A stretch of 29,738 bases of DNA from a virus (Duplodnaviria; Caudoviricetes), in the IMG/VR virus record IMGVR_UViG_3300035135_003029, positions 1 to 29,738 of that record. One strand, given 5' to 3'. The notes under the pieces were generated by a model. That model was not told the origin of the DNA, searched no databases, and worked only from the letters and a program-made list of their open reading frames with translations. Shown here one piece after another: positions 15,303-29,738 of this stretch. The position numbers were made by a program, and so were the translations under genes. Every line of letters begins with the position of its first letter. Position 1 is the first letter of the stretch.

Positions 15303-15851
15303 TTATTTTTTATTAACAGATTCAATAAAGTCATAAAAAATTCTATTTCTCTTGCTTGGATTGGAATAAAACCAAACCCATGCATAACTATTTTTAATTT
15401 TTTGTATTTTATCTTTCAACTCATCTATATTAGATTGTAGTAAATTTAATTCGGCTGTTGTTAACTCTGATACGTTTACTTTTATGCTCGCATCCTTGCC
15501 AGCATCCAAAAGTTCTTGCAAGTTACCCTCTTTGCGAGCCTTGGTCGCCGCAGTATATATTTGTTTTGAATTTTCTTTTTGTTCTGCTTTATCAGGATGA
15601 GTACTTGTCACTATGTTTCTAAATATCTTTTTGAAAGAAGAAGATGTACTATTAATGCGCCCGACATTTTGAGACTCAAACTCTGTTTCTGTAAATGGAT
15701 CGCCAAGATCGTTATCTGCACAAAATTTAATTACATTAATTGTAAATTGTTTTCCAATTTCATCAAACTGTATTTTAATGTTATTGTATTCTTCTTTATA
15801 TTCTTTCCATTCTTTTCTTAATGCATAGTATTGTTTCTTTATGTAAGACAT
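15303..15851 (-). CDS. J-domain-like protein
   Basis: FKKIFRNIVTSTHPDK (HPD motif) flanked by coiled coils. Confidence 0.6.
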   Translation of the reverse strand: MSYIKKQYYALRKEWKEYKEEYNNIKIQFDEIGKQFTINVIKFCADNDLGDPFTETEFESQNVGRINSTSSSFKKIFRNIVTSTHPDKAEQKENSKQIYTAATKARKEGNLQELLDAGKDASIKVNVSELTTAELNLLQSNIDELKDKIQKIKNSYAWVWFYSNPSKRNRIFYDFIESVNKK

Positions 15852-15873
15852 GAAATGTGTATATATTATATAT

Positions 15874-16674
15874 ATGGATTTAAGACAATCTATTCCAGAG
15901 TTTTTTGATTTTTTTCATTCTATGGATATTGATGTATATCCTATTCTATTGAGACACGATACAGAATTTTACTCAAAAGAGAACTTGAGGATTCTTTTTT
16001 TATTAACAGATGCAGATCACGAGATTAAAACGAAACCTAATGAAATTATACTGAGAACCAGTGGATTAATGAGTGAAATGAAAAAAACAGAAAATGAATT
16101 TGTATTGCCTTATTTCTTTGAATCGCTATTAGAGCCTTATAAACCATTAAAGAAAGAAAGTGCGCGACCAAAGGTCGGTTTTTGTGGACAGCATGGATGG
16201 GTTCCTCATAGAATTGACTCTATTAAGGAATTAAGTAAAAGTAAATTAATTGATGACGATATAATTTTAAGAAATGCATTTTGGGGAGGTAGTCCTAATG
16301 GTGAACAAGTAAGAAAAGAATTTTTTGATAATATTGAAAGAAATCATTTTAATTTATGTTGTAGAGGTCATGGAAATTTCTCTATGAGATTTTATCAAGT
16401 CCTATCTGCTGGTAGAATACCTGTCTTTATTGAATCTGATATGCCTTTACCTCTTGATGATTTAGTTGATTATAATGAATTTTGTATTATTGCAAAAAAC
16501 CCAAGACATTTATCGAAACTAATTTTAGAAGCTTGGGAGAATAATGATATTGAAGGAATGCAACAAAAGGCCGCCGACTTTTATCACACAATGATCAGTC
16601 ATAAAACTTACCACAAGCATTTAATTAAAGACCCAAGGTTTATTAATATACTTAAAAAATATAACAAAATTTAG
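15874..16674 (+). CDS. Exostosin/GT47-like glycosyltransferase
   Basis: VGFCG, FNLCCRGHGNFSMRFYQVLSAGRIPVFI...PLPL motifs; likely start ATG 15874. Confidence 0.8.
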   Translation: MDLRQSIPEFFDFFHSMDIDVYPILLRHDTEFYSKENLRILFLLTDADHEIKTKPNEIILRTSGLMSEMKKTENEFVLPYFFESLLEPYKPLKKESARPKVGFCGQHGWVPHRIDSIKELSKSKLIDDDIILRNAFWGGSPNGEQVRKEFFDNIERNHFNLCCRGHGNFSMRFYQVLSAGRIPVFIESDMPLPLDDLVDYNEFCIIAKNPRHLSKLILEAWENNDIEGMQQKAADFYHTMISHKTYHKHLIKDPRFINILKKYNKI

Positions 16675-17382: not shown

Positions 17383-17419
17383 GACGATTTAAATTGAATT
17401 TAACTAAATTTTAATTTAA

Positions 17420-17656
17420 TTAAATTGCTAATTCTTCATGTTTGACTGGTCTATTTAATGTTATAATACAATGTAAGTCATCTACCCTTCGTAGAGAATC
17501 CAATGTATATCCATATTTGACCATTGACTTGATAAATGCGAACTTGTATTCGCGTTCTATTTCTATTGCTATCTTAGTAGGAACAGAATCAACCCCGAAA
17601 CCAGAGTACCACACGTTGTCGCTGTACTCGGAACAGACTGATAATATTGTATTCAT
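17420..17656 (-). CDS. Hypothetical protein
   Basis: ORF; likely ATG at 17656 downstream of a GTGTA motif. Confidence 0.5.
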   Translation of the reverse strand: MNTILSVCSEYSDNVWYSGFGVDSVPTKIAIEIEREYKFAFIKSMVKYGYTLDSLRRVDDLHCIITLNRPVKHEELAI

Positions 17657-17862
17657 ATCTGCAATATAGTACACCTATTTCGCCGCCGACTTATTAGATA
17701 ATTCTAATAGGAGTTTTTCCGGGGAGATTGAAATAGGCCACCCCCCGGCTATATGTCAAGCATAAAGTTGCGAAATTTTTCAAGAAATGGGGTGGGTACT
17801 TTTCTCAAAAAATAATTAAAAATAAGTTTGACGTTAGTTGTTTTTTTGCTTATGTTGTTTAT

Positions 17863-17979
17863 ATGAAGATAACTGAATTCCTTAAACAAATGAAAATCGA
17901 ATCCTTAGCAATAACTAAGATTAAATCAGAACTTAATAAAAAAAGTTTGACATTAGTTAAAACACGTGGCATTTTATAA
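17863..17979 (+). CDS. Small hypothetical protein (38 aa), not in ORF track
   Basis: MKITEFLKQMKIESLAITKIKSELNKKSLTLVKTRGIL*; TTGACG-17-TATGTT-6-ATG. Confidence 0.55.
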   Translation: MKITEFLKQMKIESLAITKIKSELNKKSLTLVKTRGIL

Positions 17980-17981
17980 TT

Positions 17982-18305
17982 ATGAACTTAACAATAGATA
18001 ACTTAAAAATGGATCAAGTCGATTACGTCGACTCTAATGTTGTAAATGTTTTCTGTCAGTTTGACACAGGAAAAGGTTACTATGAGGGCGGGCTTAGCGC
18101 TGACGTGGTAGTAAGAGAAGAAGATGGTTATATTCTTGTCGATGCTGTAAAAATTAACTTTGTAGAAGACGAAAACGAAGATCAAGTTGAGTTTGCTTGT
18201 GATGCTAAAGCATTGGAAAGCAAGCTTGAGAAACTACTTGATCGTGTGTTGCATAGCCCATTAATGAATGAAAATGAAGATCAGCTAGTCGAAGCATTAA
18301 GTTAA
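17982..18305 (+). CDS. Acidic hypothetical protein
   Basis: 107 aa; TTGACA at 17947, 35 nt before the ATG. Confidence 0.7.
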   Translation: MNLTIDNLKMDQVDYVDSNVVNVFCQFDTGKGYYEGGLSADVVVREEDGYILVDAVKINFVEDENEDQVEFACDAKALESKLEKLLDRVLHSPLMNENEDQLVEALS

Positions 18306-18346
18306 TGCTTGACAGAATGCCATTACTAGACTAATCTAACAACACA

Positions 18347-18565
18347 ATGCAAATTAAAAAGAAAACAAAATACTTACTCACCACATCAGAAGACAAGCAC
18401 GTCATAGTGGCAGAAGTACCACATAACTACAAGCACAACGACAAAGAGTATGCTATCAGCAAGGACATGGTAGATGCTAACGTCAAGAGTGGTTTACTTA
18501 CAGACATGACAGGAGAACTTGATTGGGATGGTAGAATTTGGATACTAACAGAGGATATATCATAA
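18347..18565 (+). CDS. Hypothetical protein
   Basis: 72 aa; TTGACA-17-TAATCT upstream. Confidence 0.65.
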   Translation: MQIKKKTKYLLTTSEDKHVIVAEVPHNYKHNDKEYAISKDMVDANVKSGLLTDMTGELDWDGRIWILTEDIS

Positions 18566-18795
18566 TGACAGACACAAGATACAACGGATGGAAGAACTGG
18601 GCAACTTGGAACGTAGCGCTATGGCTAGGCAACGACGAGAGTCTTTACAAGATGGCTCGCAGGTTTGTCAACTATAAAGATTTAGCCCAAGAGCTAGTGG
18701 ATTACGGCGTGCCTGTTACCCCTGATGGGGCAAGCTATACAGACCCTGACCTTGACACTTACGCTCTTGACGAGTGGCTAATGGACGAGTTCTAA
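18565..18795 (+). CDS. Conserved-looking phage hypothetical protein (YNGWxNWxTWNVALW)
   Basis: Start at 18565 overlaps upstream TAA; motif recalled from small phage early proteins. Confidence 0.7.
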   Translation: MTDTRYNGWKNWATWNVALWLGNDESLYKMARRFVNYKDLAQELVDYGVPVTPDGASYTDPDLDTYALDEWLMDEF

Positions 18796-18802
18796 TATGC
18801 CA

Positions 18803-18869
18803 TAAGTCGCTTACAGTCAACGACTTAGGCGGCGCGCGCCGGCCTAAGTACTTGATAATCAAGCACTTA
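18803..18869. repeat. 67-bp double-palindrome element, copy 1
   Basis: TAAGTCGCTTACAGTCAACGACTTA-GGCGGCGCGCGCCGGCC-TAAGTACTTGATAATCAAGCACTTA. Confidence 0.95.
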
Positions 18870-19037
18870 CGAAACATCTGTACAAGATCCGCGCCAATGC
18901 GGGCACATATAGCGCCGGCTCCGGCAGTAGGATTGTGCAATAAAATAATTCCGAAATAAATGCAAATAAGTTTGACGTGAGCTGTTTTTCTGTTTATATT
19001 GTTTTTATAGTTAATAATTAAACAAAGGAAAATTAAA

Positions 19038-19229
19038 ATGAACACATACGACAAAGGCGACATTCTCATCTCACGCGACAACAAAATCCTTGAGTACAAG
19101 GGGCAAGTTAATCACCCCGATCTCGGTATCATTGCGAAGGTGCGGATCTACCGCACAGACAGAGAAGTGGGTATCCGCTTTGCGGATGTTACAAGACATC
19201 CCTTCTTTGCTGAAACTAAAAAGTGCTAA
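19038..19229 (+). CDS. Hypothetical protein (small beta-barrel-like)
   Basis: 63 aa; AAGGA RBS and TTGACG-17-TATATT promoter upstream. Confidence 0.7.
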   Translation: MNTYDKGDILISRDNKILEYKGQVNHPDLGIIAKVRIYRTDREVGIRFADVTRHPFFAETKKC

Positions 19230-19280
19230 ATAAGCGCGATTTAATTTGACTTTAATCATTAAATAGACGATAGTAGTAAT

Positions 19281-19433
19281 ATGACAGAACAATTAGAAAC
19301 ATTCATGACAGAAGAACTCGGTATCATCGACCGCTTGGGCACAGACCCACTTGACGGGCTTGACCTCTTTGAGGACGTAGGCGGTAACGTATGGACACTT
19401 GACCAAATCATCAACGAATTTAATAACCAATGA
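19281..19433 (+). CDS. Small acidic hypothetical protein (50 aa), not in ORF track
   Basis: MTEQLETFMTEELGIIDRLGTDPLDGLDLFEDVGGNVWTLDQIINEFNNQ*; TTGACT 35 nt upstream; ATGA overlap with next gene. Confidence 0.65.
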   Translation: MTEQLETFMTEELGIIDRLGTDPLDGLDLFEDVGGNVWTLDQIINEFNNQ

Positions 19434-19654
19434 GCGCTGAAAGAGTACCATACCCCGAACTAGACTGCGCCCTTGCTATGAGTAAGGCGCGTGGCAATCT
19501 TAACTTTCTTGTTAATGTAATAAAAGAAGGATGGTGCGAAACGCACACCAAAGCGCAAGCTGTACAAGATGCACATTCTGCACTAGTAGAAGCGCAAAAA
19601 GAATACGAAAAAGTCTTGACTTTACTCAGAGAATCCACTAATGTAAATGTATGA
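19430..19654 (+). CDS. Hypothetical protein
   Basis: 74 aa; ATGA overlaps on both sides. Confidence 0.65.
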   Translation: MSAERVPYPELDCALAMSKARGNLNFLVNVIKEGWCETHTKAQAVQDAHSALVEAQKEYEKVLTLLRESTNVNV

Positions 19655-19815
19655 TAACGATTGCAAAGAATAAAAACTTCTCGAATTGGTTCGACCTTAG
19701 GGTCTTTGGTCAACTAGTAGACCAATTCAGTAACGAACAACGCGCCATGCACATGGCTAGACGTATACGTCGTAAAGAGTACCCCAAGGCTACCATTAAA
19801 CTCATAGAGCAATGA
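19651..19815 (+). CDS. Small basic hypothetical protein (54 aa), not in ORF track
   Basis: MITIAKNKNFSNWFDLRVFGQLVDQFSNEQRAMHMARRIRRKEYPKATIKLIEQ*; TTGACT-17-TAATGT-6-ATG. Confidence 0.65.
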   Translation: MITIAKNKNFSNWFDLRVFGQLVDQFSNEQRAMHMARRIRRKEYPKATIKLIEQ

Positions 19816-19882
19816 TCTTCTTAATTGTGAGCGGAATATGTTGCTCCGCCTATGTACTCACAAGGAAGCCACATTGAACTAT

Positions 19883-19904
19883 CCCCCCGAAAGGGGGGTT
19901 TTTT
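19883..19904 (+). terminator. Rho-independent terminator
   Basis: CCCCCC-GAAA-GGGGGG-TTTTTT. Confidence 0.85.
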
Positions 19905-19922
19905 GTACTACTAAAAGTTCCG

Positions 19923-19989
19923 TAAGTCCTTGAATATCAACAACTTAGGCCGGCGCGCCGGCTGTAAGTCGTTGTATAACAACAACTTA
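19923..19989. repeat. 67-bp double-palindrome element, copy 2
   Basis: TAAGTCCTTGAATATCAACAACTTA-GGCCGGCGCGCCGGCTG-TAAGTCGTTGTATAACAACAACTTA. Confidence 0.95.
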
Positions 19990-20055
19990 CGACAAAATAA
20001 AAATAATTGCCAATATGCTTGACGTCAACCCCCTTATCCATTAGGTTGTTAGTAT

Positions 20056-20178
20056 ATGAAAAACAAAGCTAAAATAAAAGTGAGGATTCCAATGGTCTTT
20101 ACTAAAGCCCGTCCTCATAAGCTAAAAAACAAGGTTCTGCCTCGCAAGGCAAAACACAAACAAAGGATATATGCATGA
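20056..20178 (+). CDS. Small very basic protein (40 aa), not in ORF track
   Basis: MKNKAKIKVRIPMVFTKARPHKLKNKVLPRKAKHKQRIYA*; TTGACG promoter at 20019; ATGA overlap with next gene. Confidence 0.6.
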   Translation: MKNKAKIKVRIPMVFTKARPHKLKNKVLPRKAKHKQRIYA

Positions 20179-20384
20179 GTAAGCACAATACTAATAACAT
20201 GGTCAAGGTAATGAAGCAACTTAAAAAGTGCCCCGACATTACCTCTATTCAGCAAACTAAAAAAGGTTACATGATACAAGCCAAATGTGGCGAGCAACAC
20301 TTGATTCACCAAGGATCAAATTGTTACCACCCTTTACGCCGTTGGTGCAAAACCTTTACTTCTCTTAAAAACTTAACATTCTAA
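20175..20384 (+). CDS. Hypothetical basic protein (HicA-like size and pattern)
   Basis: 69 aa, helix-beta3-helix-like pattern; family assignment weak. Confidence 0.55.
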   Translation: MSKHNTNNMVKVMKQLKKCPDITSIQQTKKGYMIQAKCGEQHLIHQGSNCYHPLRRWCKTFTSLKNLTF

Positions 20385-20388
20385 AAAT

Positions 20389-20706
20389 ATGAAAAAAATT
20401 ACAATCTCACTCTCTCTTCTTCTTTTCTTTTCTTCTTTCTCTTATGGTAAAGATAAGTTTCGCATTGGCGTACGTGAATTTGACACCATGTCTGATGTTA
20501 GAAAATATGTAAAAGGAGTTAAAAAGAGAATTGATGAAAGTTTCCCAAGGCACGATCTCAAGGTTGAGCTTGAAAAGGTAAACAGGAGAAGGTTTGTAAT
20601 CAATAGAGAAACAACTTTAGCTGAGTCAGGCGTGCGTGGCAATATGATGCGAATTATTCCACCACAAAACGAAGACAGATACGGAAGAAAAAAATGTGAT
20701 AAATGA
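20389..20706 (+). CDS. Hypothetical secreted protein
   Basis: Signal peptide MKKITISLSLLLFFSSFSYG. Confidence 0.6.
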   Translation: MKKITISLSLLLFFSSFSYGKDKFRIGVREFDTMSDVRKYVKGVKKRIDESFPRHDLKVELEKVNRRRFVINRETTLAESGVRGNMMRIIPPQNEDRYGRKKCDK

Positions 20707-20742
20707 CTTGACTTCCTCAACCAATTAGCTTACTTTAATAAT

Positions 20743-20925
20743 ATGACAACATTACAAGAACTCACCGAAAGAATCAACGCCCTTCAAGACAGAATTGAAG
20801 CTAACATTGAAGCCGCTGAAGCGGGTAGCATCTCAGCACGACAAACAATTATCACTTGCGAAGAAATGAAAATGGAAATTTCTGATGCCATTGATCAAAT
20901 GGGCATTAATGCTTGCTTAGTATAA
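20743..20925 (+). CDS. Hypothetical coiled-coil protein
   Basis: 60 aa; TTGACT-17-TACTTT-6-ATG. Confidence 0.7.
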   Translation: MTTLQELTERINALQDRIEANIEAAEAGSISARQTIITCEEMKMEISDAIDQMGINACLV

Positions 20926-20940
20926 CCGCCAAAGTTTACC

Positions 20941-21007
20941 TAAGTCCTTGGTAATCAGGGACTTAGGCCGGCGCGCCGGCTGTAAGTCGTTGAATATAAA
21001 CGATTTA
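20941..21007. repeat. 67-bp double-palindrome element, copy 3
   Basis: TAAGTCCTTGGTAATCAGGGACTTA-GGCCGGCGCGCCGGCTG-TAAGTCGTTGAATATAAACGATTTA. Confidence 0.95.
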
Positions 21008-21081
21008 TGAAATAAAAAATAATTCAAAATAAATGCGAATATGCTTGCTATACCCTGCCAGATGGGCTATGTTGTTTGTAT

Positions 21082-21315
21082 ATGATTAGTAAGTACTCAC
21101 ACTTCGACCGCAACGATAACGCCCTTGCAAATGAGCAAGCTCGCCAAATGGCAGAAATCAACAGGGAGATCGCCCGCACGAATCAAGCCCTCGCAGAAGA
21201 GCGCTACCTTGAGGAGCAAGCTCTAATGCAAGAGGTTCACCGCAACCACGAAGAGCGTTGGCACGATGCCTACGAAGACTTCGACTACGGCTACCATGAC
21301 CAATACGACTTTTAG
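21082..21315 (+). CDS. Hypothetical protein with acidic/aromatic tail
   Basis: Only gene between element copies 3 and 4; TTGCTA-17-TATGTT upstream. Confidence 0.65.
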   Translation: MISKYSHFDRNDNALANEQARQMAEINREIARTNQALAEERYLEEQALMQEVHRNHEERWHDAYEDFDYGYHDQYDF

Positions 21316-21317
21316 CA

Positions 21318-21384
21318 TAAGTCGTTGGTAGTCAGGCACTTAGGTGCCGCGCGCCGCCGTAAGTCGTTGAATATCAACAACTTA
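21318..21384. repeat. 67-bp double-palindrome element, copy 4 (at the convergence point)
   Basis: TAAGTCGTTGGTAGTCAGGCACTTA-GGTGCCGCGCGCCGCCG-TAAGTCGTTGAATATCAACAACTTA. Confidence 0.95.
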
Positions 21385-21393
21385 CGACAACTT

Positions 21394-21507
21394 TTACCAA
21401 AATTTCTCTTCGTTGTCGTAGTCTACCATGTCTTGATAAGCCATGTACGCAACCATTGCGGGAGTTGTCAAGAAAAAAATTGCAACTAATACTTCTAAAA
21501 TAATCAT
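21394..21507 (-). CDS. Small membrane protein (37 aa), not in ORF track
   Basis: MIILEVLVAIFFLTTPAMVAYMAYQDMVDYDNEEKFW*; ATGA overlap with upstream gene. Confidence 0.55.
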   Translation of the reverse strand: MIILEVLVAIFFLTTPAMVAYMAYQDMVDYDNEEKFW

Positions 21508-21770
21508 GAGTAAAGCCCTTTCATTTCATCGCTAATGCCAAAATCTAAATCCTCTTCATCAATAGATTCAGCGGTTGGCTTGTAATCAATTAGAGAAACT
21601 TCGTCTTCGATGTCGCACTCTTGAGCATCTAATAAGCCATGCTCGCCCAAAACTTCTTCGGACTTAATTTCCTCGATGAAGTCAGCAACTGACTTGGTGG
21701 CTGAAACCTTTTGTGAGCTTTCTGCCGCGTGTTTAATAACTGCGATTCGTTGTTCTTCTGTTAATGTCAT
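21504..21770 (-). CDS. Acidic hypothetical protein
   Basis: 88 aa, Asp/Glu-rich; TTGACT-17-TACCTT-6-ATG. Confidence 0.7.
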   Translation of the reverse strand: MTLTEEQRIAVIKHAAESSQKVSATKSVADFIEEIKSEEVLGEHGLLDAQECDIEDEVSLIDYKPTAESIDEEDLDFGISDEMKGLYS

Positions 21771-21791
21771 AATAATAAGGTAATCTAGTTT

Positions 21792-22136
21792 TTAGTGAGA
21801 GTCAACAAGTTTTTTGTTAAAATCTGCTCGCATTGCTACAAGCAAATCTTCGTGAGCTTTCCCATCCATCTCAAATTGATGCATAAGTGATGTCACTCTG
21901 TGTGGCTCTTGCCAACCTAGCACATCATCAGAAACAGATAATGGAACGAAGTTTTTATCTTCATTAAATACTGCAACTTCAAAAGTATCGGGATAACGAC
22001 CATAAAATGGTTGAAATGCTCCATCATCGTTGCCCGCAATAACCGAGAATAAATATCCATTGTCAAGTGTGAGCGATGCACTCCATCTTCTGATAGAGTC
22101 ATCGTAAGTGAATTTTAAATCATCGAAGTTTTTCAT
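21792..22136 (-). CDS. Phage hypothetical protein (FEVAVF...DDVLGW motif)
   Basis: 114 aa; TTGACA promoter upstream. Confidence 0.7.
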   Translation of the reverse strand: MKNFDDLKFTYDDSIRRWSASLTLDNGYLFSVIAGNDDGAFQPFYGRYPDTFEVAVFNEDKNFVPLSVSDDVLGWQEPHRVTSLMHQFEMDGKAHEDLLVAMRADFNKKLVDSH

Positions 22137-22169
22137 ATAATAATAAACTAAATTAGTTTGTTTTGTTTG

Positions 22170-22409
22170 TCAAGCTACTTCAGCTAAATCTTTTGCCAAT
22201 GCTCTTTCTGCATCTACTTGTTGTTGTAATAAGTTGAGTTTGTTGAGTAAACCTTTGTAGCCGATATAGTCACCACGAAAGTGACCTTTCCATACTCCGT
22301 CAACTCGTTGAAATGTTACATCCCAAGCGCTCTTGTAGTCATATGTTCTAAGTAAGCCATTAGGTAAGCGCTCAAAGTAGAATTCTTTTCCGTTGTCTTT
22401 AATTGTCAT
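22170..22409 (-). CDS. Hypothetical protein
   Basis: Likely start MTIKDNGK at 22409 (TTGACA-17-TACTTT-6-ATG). Confidence 0.65.
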   Translation of the reverse strand: MTIKDNGKEFYFERLPNGLLRTYDYKSAWDVTFQRVDGVWKGHFRGDYIGYKGLLNKLNLLQQQVDAERALAKDLAEVA

Positions 22410-22440
22410 AAGTATAAAGTAGTTTAGTTTTTGCTCTGTG

Positions 22441-22623
22441 TCAAATAGAAACACGAATAAATTCTGTGGTAATGTTGCCAACATCGGCGCGGATGAAGTG
22501 GATCAAATCTTTTTCTAATGCTTCCTCGACCACAGCAAGGTGGTCTTTGAGTTTGCTATCATAGAGCCAAATCTCTCCGTCTTGGGTTGAATTGATAAGT
22601 TCAATAAGTTCTCTTGTCGTCAT
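22441..22623 (-). CDS. Hypothetical protein
   Basis: 60 aa; TTGCTA-17-TATTGT-6-ATG. Confidence 0.65.
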   Translation of the reverse strand: MTTRELIELINSTQDGEIWLYDSKLKDHLAVVEEALEKDLIHFIRADVGNITTEFIRVSI

Positions 22624-22687
22624 ATATATACAATAAGCGAGCCGGCAACTGATAGCAAGAAAAAAAGCAATTAAGTGAAAGTTTTCG

Positions 22688-22754
22688 TAAGTCGTTGAAT
22701 ATCAGGCACTTACGCCGGCGCGCGCCGCCTAAGTCGTTGAATATCAACAACTTA
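22688..22754. repeat. 67-bp double-palindrome element, copy 5
   Basis: TAAGTCGTTGAATATCAGGCACTTA-CGCCGGCGCGCGCCGCC-TAAGTCGTTGAATATCAACAACTTA. Confidence 0.95.
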
Positions 22755-22775
22755 GGAGACTTTTTTGGGGTTGAC

Positions 22776-23504
22776 TTAGTGGGCTAAGTACGCTATACCC
22801 TTTTTGCAACCCTTAATAAAGCAGAGGTTGCAATTATGGGCTTGACAAGTCGCAAGAATTTTGCCGTCCTCGCCTTTAACGTAAGTTGCGGGGCAAACAA
22901 AATGCCCGTCTTGCTCGGCTTTTGCCTTGCTAGTATAAACCGAAGTGCCCGCGTCGAGTCCGTCTACTTGAGGGGCTGGCTCATCTACATAAATTGCGCT
23001 TGGCTTAATGCAAACGTTTTTAAGGCTAGCTAACTTTTGCAAGTGTGGAAGTTGCGAGTCGCGCTTCCATTCCCTAGTTGGAAACCAAAAGCGAATTGTT
23101 GGGAATTGCTCACAAATCTTAATCCACGCGGCAATATACTTGGGGGAAAACAAATCGCCCGAATCATGAACGCGAAACAAATCTGTGTTTGTCTTTTTGA
23201 GTTGCTTTTTGTTTCCGTGCTTGTCAAAATACTTTGCGCGAATTTGCTTGCACATCTCATCAATAAAAGTTTGCCCGTTGTCTTGGTGCAAAGACTTTGT
23301 GATAAGATCCGCCTTGCCTTGTAAACTTGCCTTGACGTTAGCAAACATATAGAAACCCTTGCAAGCGTAGCAAGAATCACAAATAAACTTTTTGCCCGCT
23401 TCTTTAATCTTTGCTAATAGCTGCGCGGCTGGGCAATACTTGAAAGCGGGAATGTTGAATGAATAGCAAGGCATCTTGCTTGGGTTGGATAGTAAGTTAA
23501 TCAT
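22776..23504 (-). CDS. Gp88-like (radical SAM-related, Cys-rich) phage protein
   Basis: SKMPCYSFNIPA, CP...CDSCYA, FRVHDSGDLFS, FWFPTRE, C-terminal CxxxxCxxC. Confidence 0.75.
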   Translation of the reverse strand: MINLLSNPSKMPCYSFNIPAFKYCPAAQLLAKIKEAGKKFICDSCYACKGFYMFANVKASLQGKADLITKSLHQDNGQTFIDEMCKQIRAKYFDKHGNKKQLKKTNTDLFRVHDSGDLFSPKYIAAWIKICEQFPTIRFWFPTREWKRDSQLPHLQKLASLKNVCIKPSAIYVDEPAPQVDGLDAGTSVYTSKAKAEQDGHFVCPATYVKGEDGKILATCQAHNCNLCFIKGCKKGIAYLAH

Positions 23505-23525
23505 AATACTAAAGTAAACTAATTT

Positions 23526-23726
23526 TTAAACTAAGGCAAACACTAAATCCTCAAAAAAATCAGGCTCTAACCCGAACTCGTCGACAAATAAAGTTTCCCA
23601 TTCAAATGGGTCACCGCCTTGATTCAAATCAAGAGCCATTTCAGAGAAAAAAGCGCTCACTTGCAATTCCGCGTCTTCAAGGCTTAAGCCGTCACGCGCC
23701 ATTAGGATTTTTACTATTCTTTGCAT
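23526..23726 (-). CDS. Acidic phage hypothetical protein (LMARDG...EFGLEPD)
   Basis: 66 aa; TTGTGT-17-TACTGT-6-ATG. Confidence 0.7.
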   Translation of the reverse strand: MQRIVKILMARDGLSLEDAELQVSAFFSEMALDLNQGGDPFEWETLFVDEFGLEPDFFEDLVFALV

Positions 23727-23791
23727 AAGTATACAGTACCACCAAACCTAACCGAACACAAGAAAAAAGTGAATTAAATCGAAAGTTGTTG

Positions 23792-23858
23792 TAACTCGTT
23801 GAATATCAACGACTTCCGCCGGCGCGATTTTCATAAGTTGTTGATTATCAAGGACTTA
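23792..23858. repeat. 67-bp double-palindrome element, copy 6 (degenerate core)
   Basis: TAACTCGTTGAATATCAACGACTTC-CGCCGGCGCGATTTTCA-TAAGTTGTTGATTATCAAGGACTTA. Confidence 0.9.
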
Positions 23859-23880
23859 CGAAAAAACTGAGGGTAAAAGC

Positions 23881-23910
23881 AAACCCCCGCCGGCGGTGCC
23901 GACGAGGGTT
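23881..23910 (-). terminator. Probable terminator hairpin
   Basis: AACCC-CCGCCGGC-GGT-GCCGACG-AGGGTT imperfect stem followed by TTTGCTTTT on the minus strand. Confidence 0.55.
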
Positions 23911-23959
23911 ATATTTAGGGGATATATATTTGCAAGCTATATATTTACGCGGCCCGTAT

Positions 23960-24115
23960 TTACAAGCTACGCTTTTCTAATTCATACAACTTTAGTAGTA
24001 GTTTATAATGACGACGACGTTCATCATGATACTTAGGAGTATTATCCCCGTACATTTCACGAACAGCTAGCTTGTGGCCAAGCTCTCTGAGCTCCATTTT
24101 TAGTGACTCTATCAT
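23960..24115 (-). CDS. Hypothetical protein
   Basis: Likely start MIESLKMEL at 24115 just after the upstream stop. Confidence 0.55.
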   Translation of the reverse strand: MIESLKMELRELGHKLAVREMYGDNTPKYHDERRRHYKLLLKLYELEKRSL

Positions 24116-24117
24116 AA

Positions 24118-24351
24118 TTAAGCTTTGTTTAAGGATACGATTCTGTCGTAACGAAAGGAACGAACTCCTTCTTTGTTGTAACACCAAGACTTAAAGCCCA
24201 CCACAGCTTTACCTTCTTGCTTGTTGCCGAATTCATTACGGTGACTGGGTTTTGATATGGTGTACATTTCAGTGTTCCCGTCTGCAGCTGTGTACACAAC
24301 TTGATAGCGGGAAATAAAAAGATTAAGAATTGACTTCAATAAGTTCTTCAT
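24118..24351 (-). CDS. Small WYL/Sm-like domain protein
   Basis: C-terminal WCYNKEGVRSFRYDRIVSL resembles the WYL RxFRxDRI motif. Confidence 0.55.
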   Translation of the reverse strand: MKNLLKSILNLFISRYQVVYTAADGNTEMYTISKPSHRNEFGNKQEGKAVVGFKSWCYNKEGVRSFRYDRIVSLNKA

Positions 24352-24568
24352 TGTTGGATCCTCCTACAGGGTTTAAGTTATAGTGATTGTAAGCATCAGT
24401 CACTTCTTGTGCTGATTCGAAACTTACAGAAATAATGTCTCGTTCATCATATGGGTGGTAAGGAGTCTCCGACTCCTCAAAGAACAATTCCCAAAGCTCA
24501 CTCGCTTCATCCCATTCGGGTAAACCTAATGGCTTACCAACACAAACAGCTTCTATGTACTTATGCAT
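24323..24568 (-). CDS. Acidic hypothetical protein
   Basis: Likely start MHKYIEAV at 24568 with a GAGGAAGAAG upstream. Confidence 0.6.
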   Translation of the reverse strand: MHKYIEAVCVGKPLGLPEWDEASELWELFFEESETPYHPYDERDIISVSFESAQEVTDAYNHYNLNPVGGSNNEELIEVNS

Positions 24569-24782
24569 TAACTTCTTCCTCTTGTTCGATGTGAATGCCA
24601 AAGTGGTGTGCTAGCTCAGACAAGCTATCTTTAGAGCCTTTGTCTGAGAAGAAGTTGAAAGCAAAGTTTACCAACTTTTCGCGCTCGCTTTCTCTCATAT
24701 GTTTAATCTCTTCGTATATGTCGAAGATTGTGCAATTCCAATTCCAACTCTCTACCATATCTTCCATTTCTTGTTTTGTCAT
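24561..24782 (-). CDS. Hypothetical protein
   Basis: 73 aa; AGGAG RBS. Confidence 0.7.
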   Translation of the reverse strand: MTKQEMEDMVESWNWNCTIFDIYEEIKHMRESEREKLVNFAFNFFSDKGSKDSLSELAHHFGIHIEQEEEVNA

Positions 24783-24784
24783 AA

Positions 24785-24979
24785 TTATTCTCCTTGTAGT
24801 AACTTTTTGAATTGATCGTAAACTTTTTGTTTACTGCCCTTGAGTCCAAACTCCTCCTTAATAATAGAGTAGCAACTTCTGCCCCTAGTAAGCCTAAGAC
24901 CCATGATTTCTCCTTGCAATCCTTTAAGCAAAGTACGTTGACGGAATGATTCGATTTGTTTGGGTGTGTCTAATATCAT
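24785..24979 (-). CDS. Phage hypothetical protein
   Basis: 64 aa; GGAG RBS; ATGA overlap with upstream gene. Confidence 0.7.
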   Translation of the reverse strand: MILDTPKQIESFRQRTLLKGLQGEIMGLRLTRGRSCYSIIKEEFGLKGSKQKVYDQFKKLLQGE

Positions 24980-25203
24980 AGTGATGCTCCCTCCATTGAG
25001 CCGTTAAGGCATAGTTCGTGTTCTAGTGATTGTAGGTCAAGTATGAGGTCACTTAATGCTTCCTCTGCTGATTGAACTGTGAATCCATCTACGCCAAGTT
25101 CTTTGCCGCGCTCGACATTGATTCTATCCATTGCATCGGCATACCTCATGTTGCCTTCGCAAAGTTGGCGAATGGTTTGTATTATCTTTTCTTGTGTCAT
25201 CAT
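24976..25203 (-). CDS. Hypothetical protein
   Basis: 75 aa; TTGACA-17-TATATT-6-ATG. Confidence 0.7.
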   Translation of the reverse strand: MMTQEKIIQTIRQLCEGNMRYADAMDRINVERGKELGVDGFTVQSAEEALSDLILDLQSLEHELCLNGSMEGASL

Positions 25204-25217
25204 ATAAACAATATAGC

Positions 25218-25421
25218 TTACCTTAGGGCTGTTGTCAACTCATTTTGAAACTTTTTTGCTTCGACTAAATCTTTTAGGTCAAAGCTAATAGAAACAAGGT
25301 TGTCGTTAATGTTTTTCATGACCTTGACGAGATCCTCCATGTTTGCATGTCTACGGTGTTCTAGCATCTCATCACTGAGTCCGTCAATGGCGAATTTAAT
25401 TGCTTTTAATTCTTCTTTCAT
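25218..25421 (-). CDS. Hypothetical coiled-coil protein
   Basis: 67 aa, abuts upstream stop. Confidence 0.65.
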   Translation of the reverse strand: MKEELKAIKFAIDGLSDEMLEHRRHANMEDLVKVMKNINDNLVSISFDLKDLVEAKKFQNELTTALR

Positions 25422-25616
25422 TTAATCTGTCTTTACCTCCTCTAATAATGAGTCTAATTGTAGTTCTGCTCTATACTTAAGCTCGGTTGGATCGAGAATA
25501 AATATGTTGCCGTTGATATGTAATGTGAATTGATTATTGTCAGTTGTGACTGAGTATTGGTTTTCCGTAAACCAATCTTTTGCATACTTAATTGTTGTTT
25601 GTGATAGGTTGTTCAT
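25422..25616 (-). CDS. Hypothetical protein
   Basis: 64 aa; ATGA overlap with upstream gene. Confidence 0.6.
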   Translation of the reverse strand: MNNLSQTTIKYAKDWFTENQYSVTTDNNQFTLHINGNIFILDPTELKYRAELQLDSLLEEVKTD

Positions 25617-26014
25617 GGTATGTAGGCGGTTACTTGGTTGTGTGATAATAAAACTTCATCTGCATAGTATACAAACTTCTCGGTATCCTTGTCAACAAAA
25701 GTCTCATACTTGTATGGATTATATGTTACCTCAGTTGCGGGTCTGTCTGTGTTTACATTCTCGGCATCTTGAAGATAGCCCTTCACAAAAGCATGAACAT
25801 TCTTGCGCTTCTCACGAAGAACCTTTTCTCTGCCCTTGATGTCAACATGAAAATAGCAATCCCAAAGTCCGATACTATCGCCTTGTGGGATGTGAGCCTT
25901 AACTAAACCATGTTGCTTGATGCTCCAACAATCCTTGTGTAGATTCTTGTAAACATATACAGGACGATTCTTCTTGATGATGTATCGTGGGTCGTGTTGG
26001 TTTCTCTTAATCAT
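25613..26014 (-). CDS. Conserved-looking phage hypothetical protein (VYxNLHKxCWS...KNVHAFVxG...YNPYK)
   Basis: Likely start MIKRNQ at 26014 (TTGCGG-17-TATTGT-6-ATG); motif recalled from many phages. Confidence 0.75.
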   Translation of the reverse strand: MIKRNQHDPRYIIKKNRPVYVYKNLHKDCWSIKQHGLVKAHIPQGDSIGLWDCYFHVDIKGREKVLREKRKNVHAFVKGYLQDAENVNTDRPATEVTYNPYKYETFVDKDTEKFVYYADEVLLSHNQVTAYIP

Positions 26015-26079
26015 ATAACTACAATAAGGTAGTTTCTTAATTACCGCAAGAACAAAATGCAATTAAATGCATTTTGTTG

Positions 26080-26146
26080 TAAGTGTCTGTATATCAATGA
26101 CTTACGGCTCGCGCGCCGGCATAAGTCGTTGAATATCAACAACTTA
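26080..26146. repeat. 67-bp double-palindrome element, copy 7
   Basis: TAAGTGTCTGTATATCAATGACTTA-CGGCTCGCGCGCCGGCA-TAAGTCGTTGAATATCAACAACTTA. Confidence 0.95.
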
Positions 26147-26161
26147 CGGAAAGTTTCGGGC

Positions 26162-26192
26162 AAAAATAAAACCCCTCCCCGAAGGGAGGGGT
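26162..26192 (-). terminator. Rho-independent terminator
   Basis: Minus strand ACCCCTCCC-TTCG-GGGAGGGGT-TTTATTTTT, downstream of the DUF932-like gene. Confidence 0.85.
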
Positions 26193-26205
26193 ATGACACA
26201 ACTAC

Positions 26206-27075
26206 TTACACCTCAACCAATTCGTTCTCTACCACTTCCATGTCAAGAACATTCTCGACATGATTGTGAACATTGAAGTCTACGTACCCATCAAGTAATG
26301 AGTGTAGCGCATCAGAGCGATTTGGGAGTTGAACAAGATTACCTTTGTATACCTCTGTAAAGGCATTATAAAGGGAGTTGACATTTCTGTCGTGAAATTC
26401 GGGGTGATCGGATGATTCCCATTGATTCACAACATCAAGGAGTTTGGTTTTAGGCAAAGCACCCATTTGAACCGCTTTGACAATTAAGTCATTTGCATAG
26501 ACATTTCCAATAGAACGATTTTTGTATGCATCAATACGAGCATCTTGACCATTCCAAAAGCCAAACAACTTACCAAGCGCACGATTGATGGTGAAGTTGA
26601 GATCGTCTAAAATGTTGCGAGTGTGACGACGCGCAAGTTTGATTGTATTGGTGAAGATAAGATTGTCACAGACGAAAGGTGCATCACCTGCACACAATCC
26701 CGCAGGGAATTTTTTGTCGTGAGAGTTACGAATACCAACCACACAACCACGATCAGTAGAAACACGATTGACGTGATCAATGGCAAACAAACCAAAGTAA
26801 TGATTGTCGTGAGAAGCTAATGAGTGAATCTCATCTTGAATGCGGAAACCTTGAGAGGTTAAGGCATTGCGAGTGCGATCAATCAATTCAGCATGAGCGA
26901 TTGGTTGATAAGAAATGGTGCGCTCACCATTGGCATTTTCTTTTTTGCGGAACTCAACAGGTGGAGTTGGTACAGCGCGAATCTCGTCAATATCGTAGAG
27001 TTTGTGATTACCTCCGCAAATGTGCAAGTTAACAGATTTGTGAGGAGCGGTATTGGTGTTTTCTTCAATGTTCAT
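26206..27075 (-). CDS. DUF932-like family protein
   Basis: YQPIAHAELI, GIRNSHD, FVCDNL, RRHT, SLYNAFTE motifs. Confidence 0.75.
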   Translation of the reverse strand: MNIEENTNTAPHKSVNLHICGGNHKLYDIDEIRAVPTPPVEFRKKENANGERTISYQPIAHAELIDRTRNALTSQGFRIQDEIHSLASHDNHYFGLFAIDHVNRVSTDRGCVVGIRNSHDKKFPAGLCAGDAPFVCDNLIFTNTIKLARRHTRNILDDLNFTINRALGKLFGFWNGQDARIDAYKNRSIGNVYANDLIVKAVQMGALPKTKLLDVVNQWESSDHPEFHDRNVNSLYNAFTEVYKGNLVQLPNRSDALHSLLDGYVDFNVHNHVENVLDMEVVENELVEV

Positions 27076-27113
27076 AATATCTATAATATAGTAGTTGTTG
27101 TTGTTGTCAATAG

Positions 27114-27353
27114 TTAATTTTTATAAATTCTGTTTTCTTTTCCTTCGAACATAGTCTCAAAGGCATAGGCTTTTTTTGCAACCTCATCAATATAAGCGCG
27201 AATCAAACTATAACCAATTAAGTCACGTGTGTCAAGGTCTAATTTGTTAAGGACATTCCACTCAAGCATATCCATTGCAAGTTGAACTCCCTCCATTGAA
27301 TCTAAATTGTCAAAGTTGGGAGCTTTGTTTTCATAATCTTCGTTTAACTTCAT
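27114..27353 (-). CDS. Hypothetical protein
   Basis: 79 aa; TTGCGG-17-TAGTAT-6-ATG. Confidence 0.7.
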   Translation of the reverse strand: MKLNEDYENKAPNFDNLDSMEGVQLAMDMLEWNVLNKLDLDTRDLIGYSLIRAYIDEVAKKAYAFETMFEGKENRIYKN

Positions 27354-27418
27354 ATATACATACTAGGCTAGTTTTTAAAAAACCGCAAGAAAAAAGTGAA
27401 TTAAAATGAAAGTTGTCA

Positions 27419-27485
27419 TAAGTTGTTGATAGTCAGGCATTTATGCCGGCGCGCGCCGCCTAACCCCTTGGTAGTCAACGACTTA
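27419..27485. repeat. 67-bp double-palindrome element, copy 8
   Basis: TAAGTTGTTGATAGTCAGGCATTTA-TGCCGGCGCGCGCCGCC-TAACCCCTTGGTAGTCAACGACTTA. Confidence 0.93.
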
Positions 27486-27727
27486 CGAAAGTTTTTTCAA
27501 TTTAATTTGAAATAATTTTAATTTAATTTAATTTAAGTGTCAGGTATCATATTTGTATTGTATTTGATTGTTATTTAATTGATATCTAGTCCTTAAGGTA
27601 TTCTTTAGCTAATATAGTAAAAAAGGATAAGGTCCCTAGAATGAGTATTGATTCTATTGCCATGTATATTCATGATAGTAATTATAGTATATGTGGGGAT
27701 CTAGAAGTAGACCCACCGGGTTTTCGG

Positions 27728-28018
27728 TTAAGCTCTTAAGCCTTCAATTGCTTGCTTAACAGCAAATGGAACGAAAGGCGAAGTTGCCATTCCATCTAAT
27801 GTTCTTGCTGGAATCGATACATCACGAACATAGTCGCCCGTTTCCTCGACATATTCCATTCTAGCTTTAGTGTCGCAGGCTTGAGCTATATATCTGTCGC
27901 GCCCGCATCTAATAAGAAGGGGGAGGTTGGGCATCTCAACTTCTAATGAATCGAGATCTTGCGCTGTAACGAAACCAAATTGTTGTTTGGAGAGAACTTT
28001 TAATAATGTGTTAATCAT
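27728..28018 (-). CDS. Hypothetical protein
   Basis: Likely start MINTLL at 28018 (TTGACA-17-TATTGT-6-ATG). Confidence 0.7.
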   Translation of the reverse strand: MINTLLKVLSKQQFGFVTAQDLDSLEVEMPNLPLLIRCGRDRYIAQACDTKARMEYVEETGDYVRDVSIPARTLDGMATSPFVPFAVKQAIEGLRA

Positions 28019-28055
28019 AAAAATACAATAATGGATCATGCGTGGTTTGTCAAAT

Positions 28056-28092
28056 AAAAAAACCCCGACCTAGCAGAGGCACTAGATCGGGG
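28056..28092 (-). terminator. Rho-independent terminator closing the candidate ncRNA
   Basis: Minus strand CCCCGATCTAG-TGCCTCTG-CTAGGTCGGGG-TTTTTTT. Confidence 0.85.
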
Positions 28093-28432
28093 CTGAACGA
28101 TTGGCGAGAAAATAGATGTGGGGAGGGACTACTGAATACCCTCAACTTTCGGCGTGAACATCAGTTCATTGGTTAACCTACTCGAACTACACTTGGATTG
28201 GGTCATCCTACCTCAGACATTTGTCCATCGGCACTCCACCACAGAGAAGCATATACCTTACCCCGCACACGAAGGGGTATTCGGTCACCCACAGGAAGGA
28301 TTATAAGCCCTTCCAAAGTTTATAGAGCAAGTCGGCGCCCGATACTCAGTTGCCAACTTATTTGCTCCAAATTAAAATGTTAAAGATCAATTTTATTTTA
28401 TTTAATTGAGTTTGGTTCTCAATTTTGATTAT
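28056..28432 (-). ncRNA. Candidate structured non-coding RNA (family unknown)
   Basis: Consensus promoter, leader hairpin, boxA-like TGATCTTTAACA, several GC-rich hairpins, no minus-strand ORF >=60 aa, terminator. Confidence 0.65.
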
Positions 28433-28438
28433 TTATAT

Positions 28439-28467
28439 ATTATACTATTTATCTTCTGAATTGTCAA
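28439..28467 (-). promoter_or_regulatory. Perfect consensus sigma70 promoter
   Basis: TTGACA-attcagaagataaatag(17)-TATAAT on the minus strand. Confidence 0.85.
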
Positions 28468-28750
28468 GTAAAACTTTAATTCTTTCGTAAATATCTTCTA
28501 CATTGAATTCGTGATAATAATCTACATTGTCTTCTCTGAAATATACTTGATACAACTCATCATCACCTTCAACCTTGATTCTTGGGGTCACTGGGGCTTT
28601 GGTGTTGTATCTATCTGCATATTCTTCCCTAGTAATCTTCTCTATTTCGTATCCATCATTAATAAGACGATCAACATAGGGTTCAACAATACCACATGGG
28701 GGGCATTTTCCCTTACTCTTATCAAAATATATATAATAACCTTTTTTCAT
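28445..28750 (-). CDS. Thioredoxin/glutaredoxin-like protein
   Basis: CPPC after a beta-strand, later TPRI cis-Pro-like motif. Confidence 0.5.
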   Translation of the reverse strand: MKKGYYIYFDKSKGKCPPCGIVEPYVDRLINDGYEIEKITREEYADRYNTKAPVTPRIKVEGDDELYQVYFREDNVDYYHEFNVEDIYERIKVLLDNSEDK

Positions 28751-28756
28751 GTATAT

Positions 28757-28954
28757 TTATACACATTTTTTGGCTAACCTCAATGCCCTTTGTGCTTGTA
28801 TTTCTTTAAGTCTTTTATCTGCCTCCATTTGTTGTGCGATTATACTATCTTCGACTACTGAGCCGAAGTTGGCAAACTTTGCGCCACGAATGTAGTGACC
28901 ATTCTTGACATTGTTCATAATAGAGGTTGCTTGGGCACATTTAGCGAGATTCAT
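28757..28954 (-). CDS. Hypothetical protein
   Basis: 65 aa; AAAGGAA RBS. Confidence 0.65.
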   Translation of the reverse strand: MNLAKCAQATSIMNNVKNGHYIRGAKFANFGSVVEDSIIAQQMEADKRLKEIQAQRALRLAKKCV

Positions 28955-29075
28955 AACTTTCCTTTCGTTGGTGATTAATAATATAGAACTACTATAAGGG
29001 GGTAATAGAATAAAGTCAACAATTAATTTGAATTTCTTTAATTTAAATCAAATTTAATTTGAATTAAAACATAAA

Positions 29076-29393
29076 TCATTGATTATCAACATCTTCAGTA
29101 GTTTGCCCTGCCTCAGCTAATAGCTTATCTTGTAGCATATCATTAACATAGTATGTGTTGTTGAATATGCCTGTGGCGCGCTTACCTTCGTTGGTAATCT
29201 TATTTAACTCAGACTTGATAGCAGTTATTTCGTTATTTGCGAGTTCCTCGATCTTGTTTGCACTAATCTTCTCTCCTGTTTTCTTATTTACAAGAGAATC
29301 GTTTGCATTTAAATCGGCGCGCATTCTCTTTATTTCAGAACGTATATGTAAAATATCGTCCAACAATCTATTTATGTCTTTTGCAATACTCAT
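29076..29393 (-). CDS. Hypothetical coiled-coil protein
   Basis: Likely ATG 29393, TTGACA 35 nt upstream. Confidence 0.65.
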   Translation of the reverse strand: MSIAKDINRLLDDILHIRSEIKRMRADLNANDSLVNKKTGEKISANKIEELANNEITAIKSELNKITNEGKRATGIFNNTYYVNDMLQDKLLAEAGQTTEDVDNQ

Positions 29394-29476
29394 ACCAATC
29401 ACTATATGTGTTATTTCGCCAATGTCAAATAAAATTTCAATAAATTTATTTCAAAATAATTACATTTAAATTTAAT

Positions 29477-29689
29477 TTAAGTTATTTCGCTATAATTCAT
29501 TTGCAAATCAAATGGTGGAAATAGCAATATCATATTTGGGTGCATGAAGATCGCAGTTCGGGGCGCAACATTATTCTCTATTATCTCTATATCTTCAACC
29601 ATGTACTCTTCTGAGTCCAATAGATTGCTAAAACCCTCATCATTATCCATCCAATACTCTACATACTCGTCATATTGGTTTTGGTTCAT
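29477..29689 (-). CDS. Acidic hypothetical protein
   Basis: 70-aa ORF. Confidence 0.55.
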   Translation of the reverse strand: MNQNQYDEYVEYWMDNDEGFSNLLDSEEYMVEDIEIIENNVAPRTAIFMHPNMILLFPPFDLQMNYSEIT

Positions 29690-29738
29690 CTTATTTAAGT
29701 TTATTTCACTCGAAATTAATTCAAATTTAGTTAAATTA

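Follow-up and report, generated by a model that had tools for sequence, protein, structure and literature searches.

The window analysed here is a 29.7-kb fragment, of 36.7% GC, from an uncultured aquatic phage (IMG/VR record IMGVR_UViG_3300035135_003029, positions 1 to 29,738), in which an array of small early-type genes is divided by eight copies of an intergenic double-palindrome element. Each copy has two arms placed around a GC-rich core, and the arms read as mirrored sites for the integration host factor (IHF). The elements are probably paired docking sites for a host protein of the IHF family that help weak early promoters and also serve as linkers of exchangeable cassettes, similar to the promoter-early stem-loop (PeSL) cassettes of T4-type phages; they do not form an integron.

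The eight starts given in an initial annotation of this DNA are correct (they are those listed below), as are the intergenic position of every copy and the invariant arm-core-arm layout of 25+17+25 bp (67 bp). The description of imperfect palindromes around GC-rich cores in AT-rich DNA also holds, with 14-22 of the 25 arm positions self-complementary and 11-17 G+C among the 17 core positions. In a scan with an arm-N17-arm position weight matrix, as that annotation had proposed, the copies score 55-70 bits, far beyond chance: the next-best site reaches 15.5 bits, and 50 Markov shuffles give -2.2 at most. When a copy is omitted from the matrix, it remains within the top eight. The blocks between copies consist of small genes as described, with an upper count of nine open reading frames (ORFs) instead of eight and a lower one of one. 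The annotation mentioned neither the IHF consensus nor the fixed association with promoters. The elements and a ninth arm, all without assigned strand, are the following.

18803-18869: element 1; nearest -35 box on the right side, 102 bp off
19923-19989: element 2; preceded by a terminator (19883-19898); promoter 29 bp rightward
20941-21007: element 3; promoter 37 bp rightward
21318-21384: element 4; without promoter, where transcription directions collide head-on
22688-22754: element 5; promoter (minus strand) 29 bp leftward
23792-23858: element 6; preceded by a terminator (23882-23910, minus); promoter 30 bp leftward
26080-26146: element 7; preceded by a terminator (26171-26192, minus); promoter 30 bp leftward
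27419-27485: element 8; promoter 30 bp leftward
29072-29096: ninth arm, single and weaker (18.7 bits; shuffles reach at most 14.3), lying upstream of a promoter-like sequence, TTGACT at 29019 (minus)

Mirrored arms and weak early promoters

The E. coli IHF consensus is WATCAR-N4-TTR, and the protein kinks DNA at two points 9 bp apart (available portions of PMC8421141 and 10.1101/382655). Each arm half, read outward from the centre, corresponds to this consensus, which may not be that of the host. The match is exact in 12 of the 32 halves of the window and has at most one mismatch in 29; among relatives, 77-82% of 2,180 halves (545 distinct elements) have at most one mismatch, and the A of TCA and the TT are 99-100% fixed. 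The mirror axis falls on W, which we take, from the lambda H' site, to lie halfway between the IHF kinks. The asymmetric A-tract half of some IHF sites is not present, its place being taken by the mirrored consensus, and a mild right-left bias remains. The four "N4" bases are also conserved (CGAC), beyond what the IHF consensus demands. A phage-encoded IHF/HU was rejected: such genes are found in none of eight related records, and therefore a binder of the IHF kind would come from the host.

The elements can fold (z -2.0 to -4.7). Pairing with the own partner is nevertheless below that with shuffled partners, both arm to arm (z -7.4, 335 elements) and within arms (z -2.2); the value for core halves (z -7.1) comes from unoriented cores, which inflates the null. 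A hairpin or cruciform is ruled out on this ground, and the arms appear to act as paired double-stranded protein sites.

Early-type promoters in the window have the form TTG-N20-TA-N3-T, followed by ATG after 5-9 bases. Between 17828 and 28053 most small early-type genes lack a Shine-Dalgarno sequence and start 6-9 bases past the TA-N3-T box, so that leaderless mRNAs are predicted for most of them. (The relative G004 encodes an HPF/S30AE ribosome-binding protein, at L126:11748-12065.) A promoter-like site, with an A+T-rich upstream tract and often a weak -35 box, follows seven of the eight copies.

18972-19000 (plus): sigma70-like promoter TTGACG after element 1, with leader
20019-20047 (plus): promoter-like TTGACG-N17-TAGGTT, ATG 8 nt on; predicted leaderless
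21045-21073 (plus): promoter-like, weak -35 TTGCTA; predicted leaderless
22630-22658 (minus): promoter-like, weak -35 TTGCTA; predicted leaderless
23733-23761 (minus): promoter-like, weak -35 TTGTGT; predicted leaderless
26021-26049 (minus): promoter-like, weak -35 TTGCGG; predicted leaderless
27360-27388 (minus): promoter-like, weak -35 TTGCGG; predicted leaderless

The distance from element to -35 box is 29-30 bp in five of the eight copies, 37 bp in one and 102 bp in another, the eighth being without promoter. Across 65 non-redundant loci the arm-to-35 distance peaks at 30 bp where the arm spacing is 41-43 or 53 bp, and at 27 bp where it is 45-48 or 50 bp, with smaller groups at 16-20 and 36-41 bp. 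A Rayleigh fit of these distances is ambiguous, having two maxima (about 10.9 and 12.75 bp), and therefore the peaks are relied on and not a period. The linked promoters are also weaker in sequence: TTGAC occurs in 16% of them versus 64% of other promoters, with the lower share in 57 of 61 loci (in the window, 1/6 versus 9/10). The tract upstream of the element-linked -35 is richer in A+T (0.81 versus 0.72). In relatives, the 15 bp upstream of this box are T-rich (63%) in one genome direction and A-rich (48%) in the other, following the genome strand. Separate terminators precede three of the eight window copies, and no strong terminator lies just upstream of the other five.

A parallel is found in the cultured Stenotrophomonas phage DLP6 (KU682439.2), for which paired motifs are listed as "phage promoters" (available portion of PMC5349666). 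The same 13-base IHF word occurs there in 31 copies among 34 IHF-consensus matches genome-wide. The copies stand in runs, 25-26 bp apart (for example, at 87587-87680 of the record), and 13 of the 15 runs end 11, 11, 12, 21 (three), 22 (five) or 32 (two) bp before TTTACT-type -35 boxes. As in the family of the window, the word is paired and placed near weak -35 boxes; unlike in that family, the repeats are asymmetric and direct, follow the direction of transcription and are scattered over the genome, and a search for the mirrored arm in DLP6 returned no hits. As judged from their sequence, these paired "phage promoters" are likely IHF sites in tandem, helically phased with promoters of the sigma70 type. 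That the same word stands in phase before weak -35 boxes in a T4-like phage without relation to this family speaks for a host protein and for a phased action on weak promoters.

In the proposed mechanism, a host IHF-family protein would bind and bend both mirror-symmetric arms around the GC spacer, and the bent arms would help RNA polymerase at weak promoters set at a fixed distance. The element-plus-promoter unit would, in addition, offer a short homology for general recombination that reorders, drops and flips cassettes.

Distribution in relatives and cassette exchange

Dozens of contigs of aquatic phages carry the arm. In IMG/VR, a scan with variable gap listed 80 loci on about 56 contigs, the phage of the window among them, and further relatives were retrieved with baits from two cassette genes; the 115 selected loci hold 752 elements. 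In two complete 200-kb relatives all strong arms lie inside about 9 kb. The arm is conserved, and the core and the arm spacing (41-43, 45-48, 50, 52-53 or 58 bp) are specific to each genome, the modal spacing of the own locus being held by 293 of 335 distinct elements. Phages with a GP88 protein 95-98% identical to that of the window can yet have arms spaced by 42, 48 or 53 bp. The initial annotation had proposed tandem protein sites on one helix face. The paired double-stranded sites stand; the argument for a shared face drawn from the 42-bp spacing does not generalise, since the spacing differs from genome to genome, and the same face is ruled out as a general rule. Core length ranges from 16 to 33 bp among close relatives, with 1-2 bp variation inside genomes, and the palindrome at the core centre is lineage-specific, for example GCC(A/T)GGC. 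Neither core type nor spacing is convincingly followed by any nearby gene (best Spearman 0.39 and 0.52). The centres of some cores, for example CC(A/T)GG, GC(A/T)GC and GCGC, resemble C5 methylation motifs; the relative G004 encodes a C5-cytosine methyltransferase (L127:7657-8769).

The whole element has no match among cultured phages or plasmids. Of the three loci returned by an exact double-arm scan of 185,579 genomes, two lie on short contigs of phage-like character that hold many elements, and the third is a single pair in an Entotheonella chromosome. A host chromosome repeat was rejected on this count, in a scan that covered exact double arms and did not search for single arms in hosts. 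The Entotheonella pair (L123:5001-5072) is intergenic, with arms 47 bp apart and an A+T-rich spacer. The two short contigs (L124 and L125, binned as Flavobacteriaceae and Acetofilamentum) are pieces of this phage type with 6-7 elements each; they are likely mis-binned and give no evidence on the host. The HPF-like and ClpB-like genes of G004 indicated no host either. No description of the mirrored twin element was found in the literature searched, mostly open-access papers without supplements.

The gene content between elements was compared among relatives, as the initial annotation had proposed. Module order varies among 15 loci, and single cassettes are found flipped between two elements. 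Junctions were counted in 101 loci, which share kinship, so that the counts overstate independence. Permuted junctions touch an element in 89 of 195 cases (28.6 expected), a threefold enrichment, and a plain promoter in 64 (20.7 expected); among 514 gain-loss junctions the figures are 176 (72.8 expected) and 130 (51.8 expected). Inverted junctions touch an element in 15 of 26 cases (4.3 expected) and a plain promoter in two (2.5 expected). Only inversions favour elements over plain promoters. The mirror symmetry of the elements would permit such flips. In loci L085 (9171-9705 and 12005-12540) and L087 (9193 and 12229), a one-gene cassette is duplicated from element to element, against the direction of its neighbours.

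The elements themselves are chimeric: the gene-adjacent half travels with its gene (excess identity 0.44-0.68 versus 0.07-0.23; 268 pairs). Linkage falls most steeply across the core centre, and individual switches also occur in arm 1 and past arm 2. These switch points serve as examples, their pooled counts being set aside because one family was split in two of 13 triples.

The search for recombinases was carried from the window to its relatives. The tyrosine recombinase family PF00589 is found in none of eight related records, six of them at least 90% complete, and the serine resolvase family PF00239 in none of four. A Pfam scan of 148 of the 195 ORFs of G004 found no site-specific recombinase; it found RecA-like, RuvB-like, Holliday-resolvase and SSB genes. 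Recombination would proceed through phage functions of this kind (RecA/UvsX-like, RuvB-like and resolvase), which a relative encodes. No rearranged joints, such as excised mini-circles of the PeSL kind would leave, appear at 97% in the contigs of runs X1, X2, X5 and X24, and contigs lose rare variants. In two of the runs the strain reaches a depth of about 100-fold. The RNA run X24, with coverage in 3 of 30 bins, is uninformative on expression, and runs with small word shares were left aside. The pattern fits, by analogy, the homology-driven exchange proposed for PeSLs. The earlier idea of a cassette-shuffling site is thus retained for the reordering in relatives, the junctions enriched at elements and the analogy to PeSLs; its integron-like, site-specific form is not, given the lack of a recombinase, the cassettes' own promoters and the varying crossovers.

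Array layout, candidate terminal repeat and polarity

Two head-on sets of small genes form the array, on the plus strand to the left of element 4 (21318) and on the minus strand to its right. Features of the array are the following.

18538-18795 (plus): DUF7249 gene, stopping at element 1; orientation reversed in most relatives
22776-23504 (minus): GP88-family gene, whose cassette served as bait for finding relatives
25613-26062 (minus): Phage L5 gp82-like gene, leading a 9-ORF cassette
26206-27075 (minus): DUF932-like gene cassette; Atlas lead 0.97, no Pfam hit at 1e-3
17900-29400 (no strand): stretch of about twofold depth, with approximate edges, enclosing all of the array; a candidate for a long direct terminal repeat

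Read depth over error-free contigs in run X1 is 43.9 left of 18.0 kb, 68-97 in the array and 53 at 29569; in X2 it is 54 on the left, 89-116 in the array and 67 at the right flank. Array bins of equally low GC keep the high depth. Both runs may be the window's own source, and the flanks are covered briefly. The edges of the double depth lie near the outermost inward promoters, at 17828 (plus) and 29428 (minus). The depth suggests an 11.5-kb terminal repeat containing the array. Mispairing of its two terminal copies would explain the uniformity of the elements inside one genome.

In relatives, 85% of the arms stand in the majority orientation of their locus (null 64%). Elements at leftward promoters match the rightward ones better unflipped (35 of 48 elements, 22 of 26 loci; two of four in the window itself). 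There is almost no strand skew at either intergenic or fourfold sites, which rules out strand mutation bias as the source of this polarity. The promoterless elements at head-on junctions often have stop codons 0-13 bp from their arms. Activation alone accounts for neither the polarity nor these elements.

A sister lineage, L101 (GP88 60% identical), has no IHF arm and carries seven pairs of 25-26-25 elements with the palindrome CCAGCCC...GGGCTGG and 51-bp spacing. The layout of the element outlives the arm word. The arm-GC core-arm arrangement extends over L101:5821-20263 (also seen in L098-L105 and L121), with tandem CTTATGCATAG-type repeats beside some copies.

Outside the elements, the window encodes a terminase (4573-6432), PhoH, a sigma-like gene and the manA RNA. 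The manA motif (28113-28314, minus; Rfam RF01745, 71 bits) adjoins the array and is conserved in many relatives. It was the only match of the Rfam and tRNA scans of the window, which found no tRNA, and the elements were accordingly rejected as RNA or tRNA. Among the late genes, 11075-13354 (minus) encodes a 759-aa low-complexity, mucin-like protein rich in Thr, Gln and Pro, with TQTQTP repeats; an exostosin GT47-like glycosyltransferase (15850-16674) adjoins PhoH. Near-pure A+T tracts, mutually related and of TTTAATTTAA type, lie at 17385-17424, 27487-27536, 29029-29068, 29441-29480 and 29696-29735; some are close to the double-depth edges, and they are possible end, origin or packaging signals.

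Competing explanations and known systems

Several points weigh against host IHF-type sites acting on promoters. Binding, bending and promoter activation are predictions from sequence. Canonical IHF sites are asymmetric, those of DLP6 too, and the arms of the window are mirrored; the phase to the -35 box in DLP6 is off by about half a turn relative to this family, and across relatives the arm spacing falls out of helical step. A promoterless element is kept at the head-on junction in all 15 mapped loci, and in L101 the same layout carries a non-IHF arm. Permuted junctions are equally enriched at plain promoters that lack an element, and therefore the element is not needed for shuffling.

The retained head-on elements, the stop codons at their arms and the five window copies without a strong terminator just upstream are what would be expected if the element were mainly a protein-bound boundary (a roadblock, insulator or topological barrier), the promoter spacing being secondary. 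The single polarity held across the transcription switch with near-zero strand skew, and the confinement to about 9 kb of two complete genomes in a likely terminal repeat, agree with a directional mark used in DNA entry or replication. Either role as the main one is considered unlikely: the sharp -35 distance, the link to weak -35 boxes and the DLP6 parallel point to promoters, and homogenisation of direct repeats also yields a shared polarity. It is quite doubtful that the arms bind another dimer, phage- or host-encoded, with a convergent match to IHF. Perfect mirror symmetry and the CGAC bases do exceed the IHF consensus, the sister lineage swaps the arm for a different palindrome and a host IHF is only presumed; however, the invariant positions coincide with the IHF consensus, the same word stands in DLP6, an unrelated T4-like phage of a gammaproteobacterium, and neither core type nor spacing is followed by a nearby gene.

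A dedicated site-specific recombinase of the integron or shufflon sort, cutting within the palindromic core and assisted by IHF as a bender, would account for the steep drop of linkage across the core centre, the lineage-specific core palindrome, the flipped single cassettes and the preference of inversions for elements. It is nonetheless very improbable, given that neither recombinase family was found in the records scanned nor any such enzyme among the scanned G004 ORFs, that core length varies between close relatives and within genomes, that switches also fall in arm 1 and past arm 2, and that the contigs of the two deep runs, in which rare variants are lost, show no joints. The fixed crossover and linked recombinase of shufflons are not encountered; the core centre may be a preferred site. 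Paired IHF-family sites at weak promoters stay the favoured explanation.

PeSLs are early-promoter cassettes for which homology-driven exchange is proposed, with no dedicated recombinase identified in the available portions of PMC2839356 and PMC4122927. The present array shares with them an intergenic repeat unit, a sigma70-like promoter with an A+T-rich upstream tract, a variable small-gene region, and genes that are gained, lost or exchanged at junctions falling on the units, as seen in relatives. Unlike PeSLs, the unit consists of two IHF-type palindromes set rigidly about a GC core, and it shows neither hairpin covariation nor a built-in terminator stem-loop; the -35 boxes are weak and not consensus, the promoters are predicted to be leaderless and the cassettes also invert. 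The phage, moreover, is not T4-like: G004 has a DnaE-type polymerase, and the terminase is closest to that of Bacillus phages Slash and Staley, at 25%. The element resembles PeSLs in function and is excluded from them by the stem-loop and the phage group.

In integron attC arrays, small genes are flanked by two-armed sites whose centre varies, and they form promoterless, co-oriented cassettes served by IntI. The first of these traits is shared by the window, whereas IntI and fold covariation are absent and cassettes with their own promoters stand in both orientations; the array is not an integron.

IHF activates the early promoter Pe of phage Mu. An IHF site is present at this promoter (available portion of PMC3820752). 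The Mu and E. coli sites are like the window arms in their consensus match and in a position upstream of an early promoter that host polymerase reads; the arms differ in being mirrored without the A-tract half, paired around a GC core and repeated 7-21 times, with binding that is predicted. Phage SPO1 carries a host-takeover module in an 11.5-kb terminal redundancy (available portion of PMC3896407), and here the small early genes, in a cluster of comparable size, apparently also lie in a terminal repeat, as judged by read depth. No such element is reported for SPO1 in that portion.

A broader reading is offered tentatively: the elements may be phage "punctuation marks", widespread and so far undescribed, formed by pairs of exchangeable docking sites for the host's nucleoid protein around a lineage-specific GC core, set in one direction along a first-entering terminal repeat. 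Folded by the host protein, such marks would activate early promoters that are weak, insulate units that meet head-on and guide the shuffling of cassettes; a lineage moving to a host with a different nucleoid protein would exchange its arm word. In these phages the arm motif is a marker of the early region and perhaps of the genome ends. The activation idea is testable in the cultured DLP6, whose paired repeats were read as promoters. If it is true, lytic phages would recruit a host DNA-bending protein over a whole genome segment to start their first genes, and the early-gene reshuffling in a large family of uncultured aquatic phages would have an account at the level of sequence.

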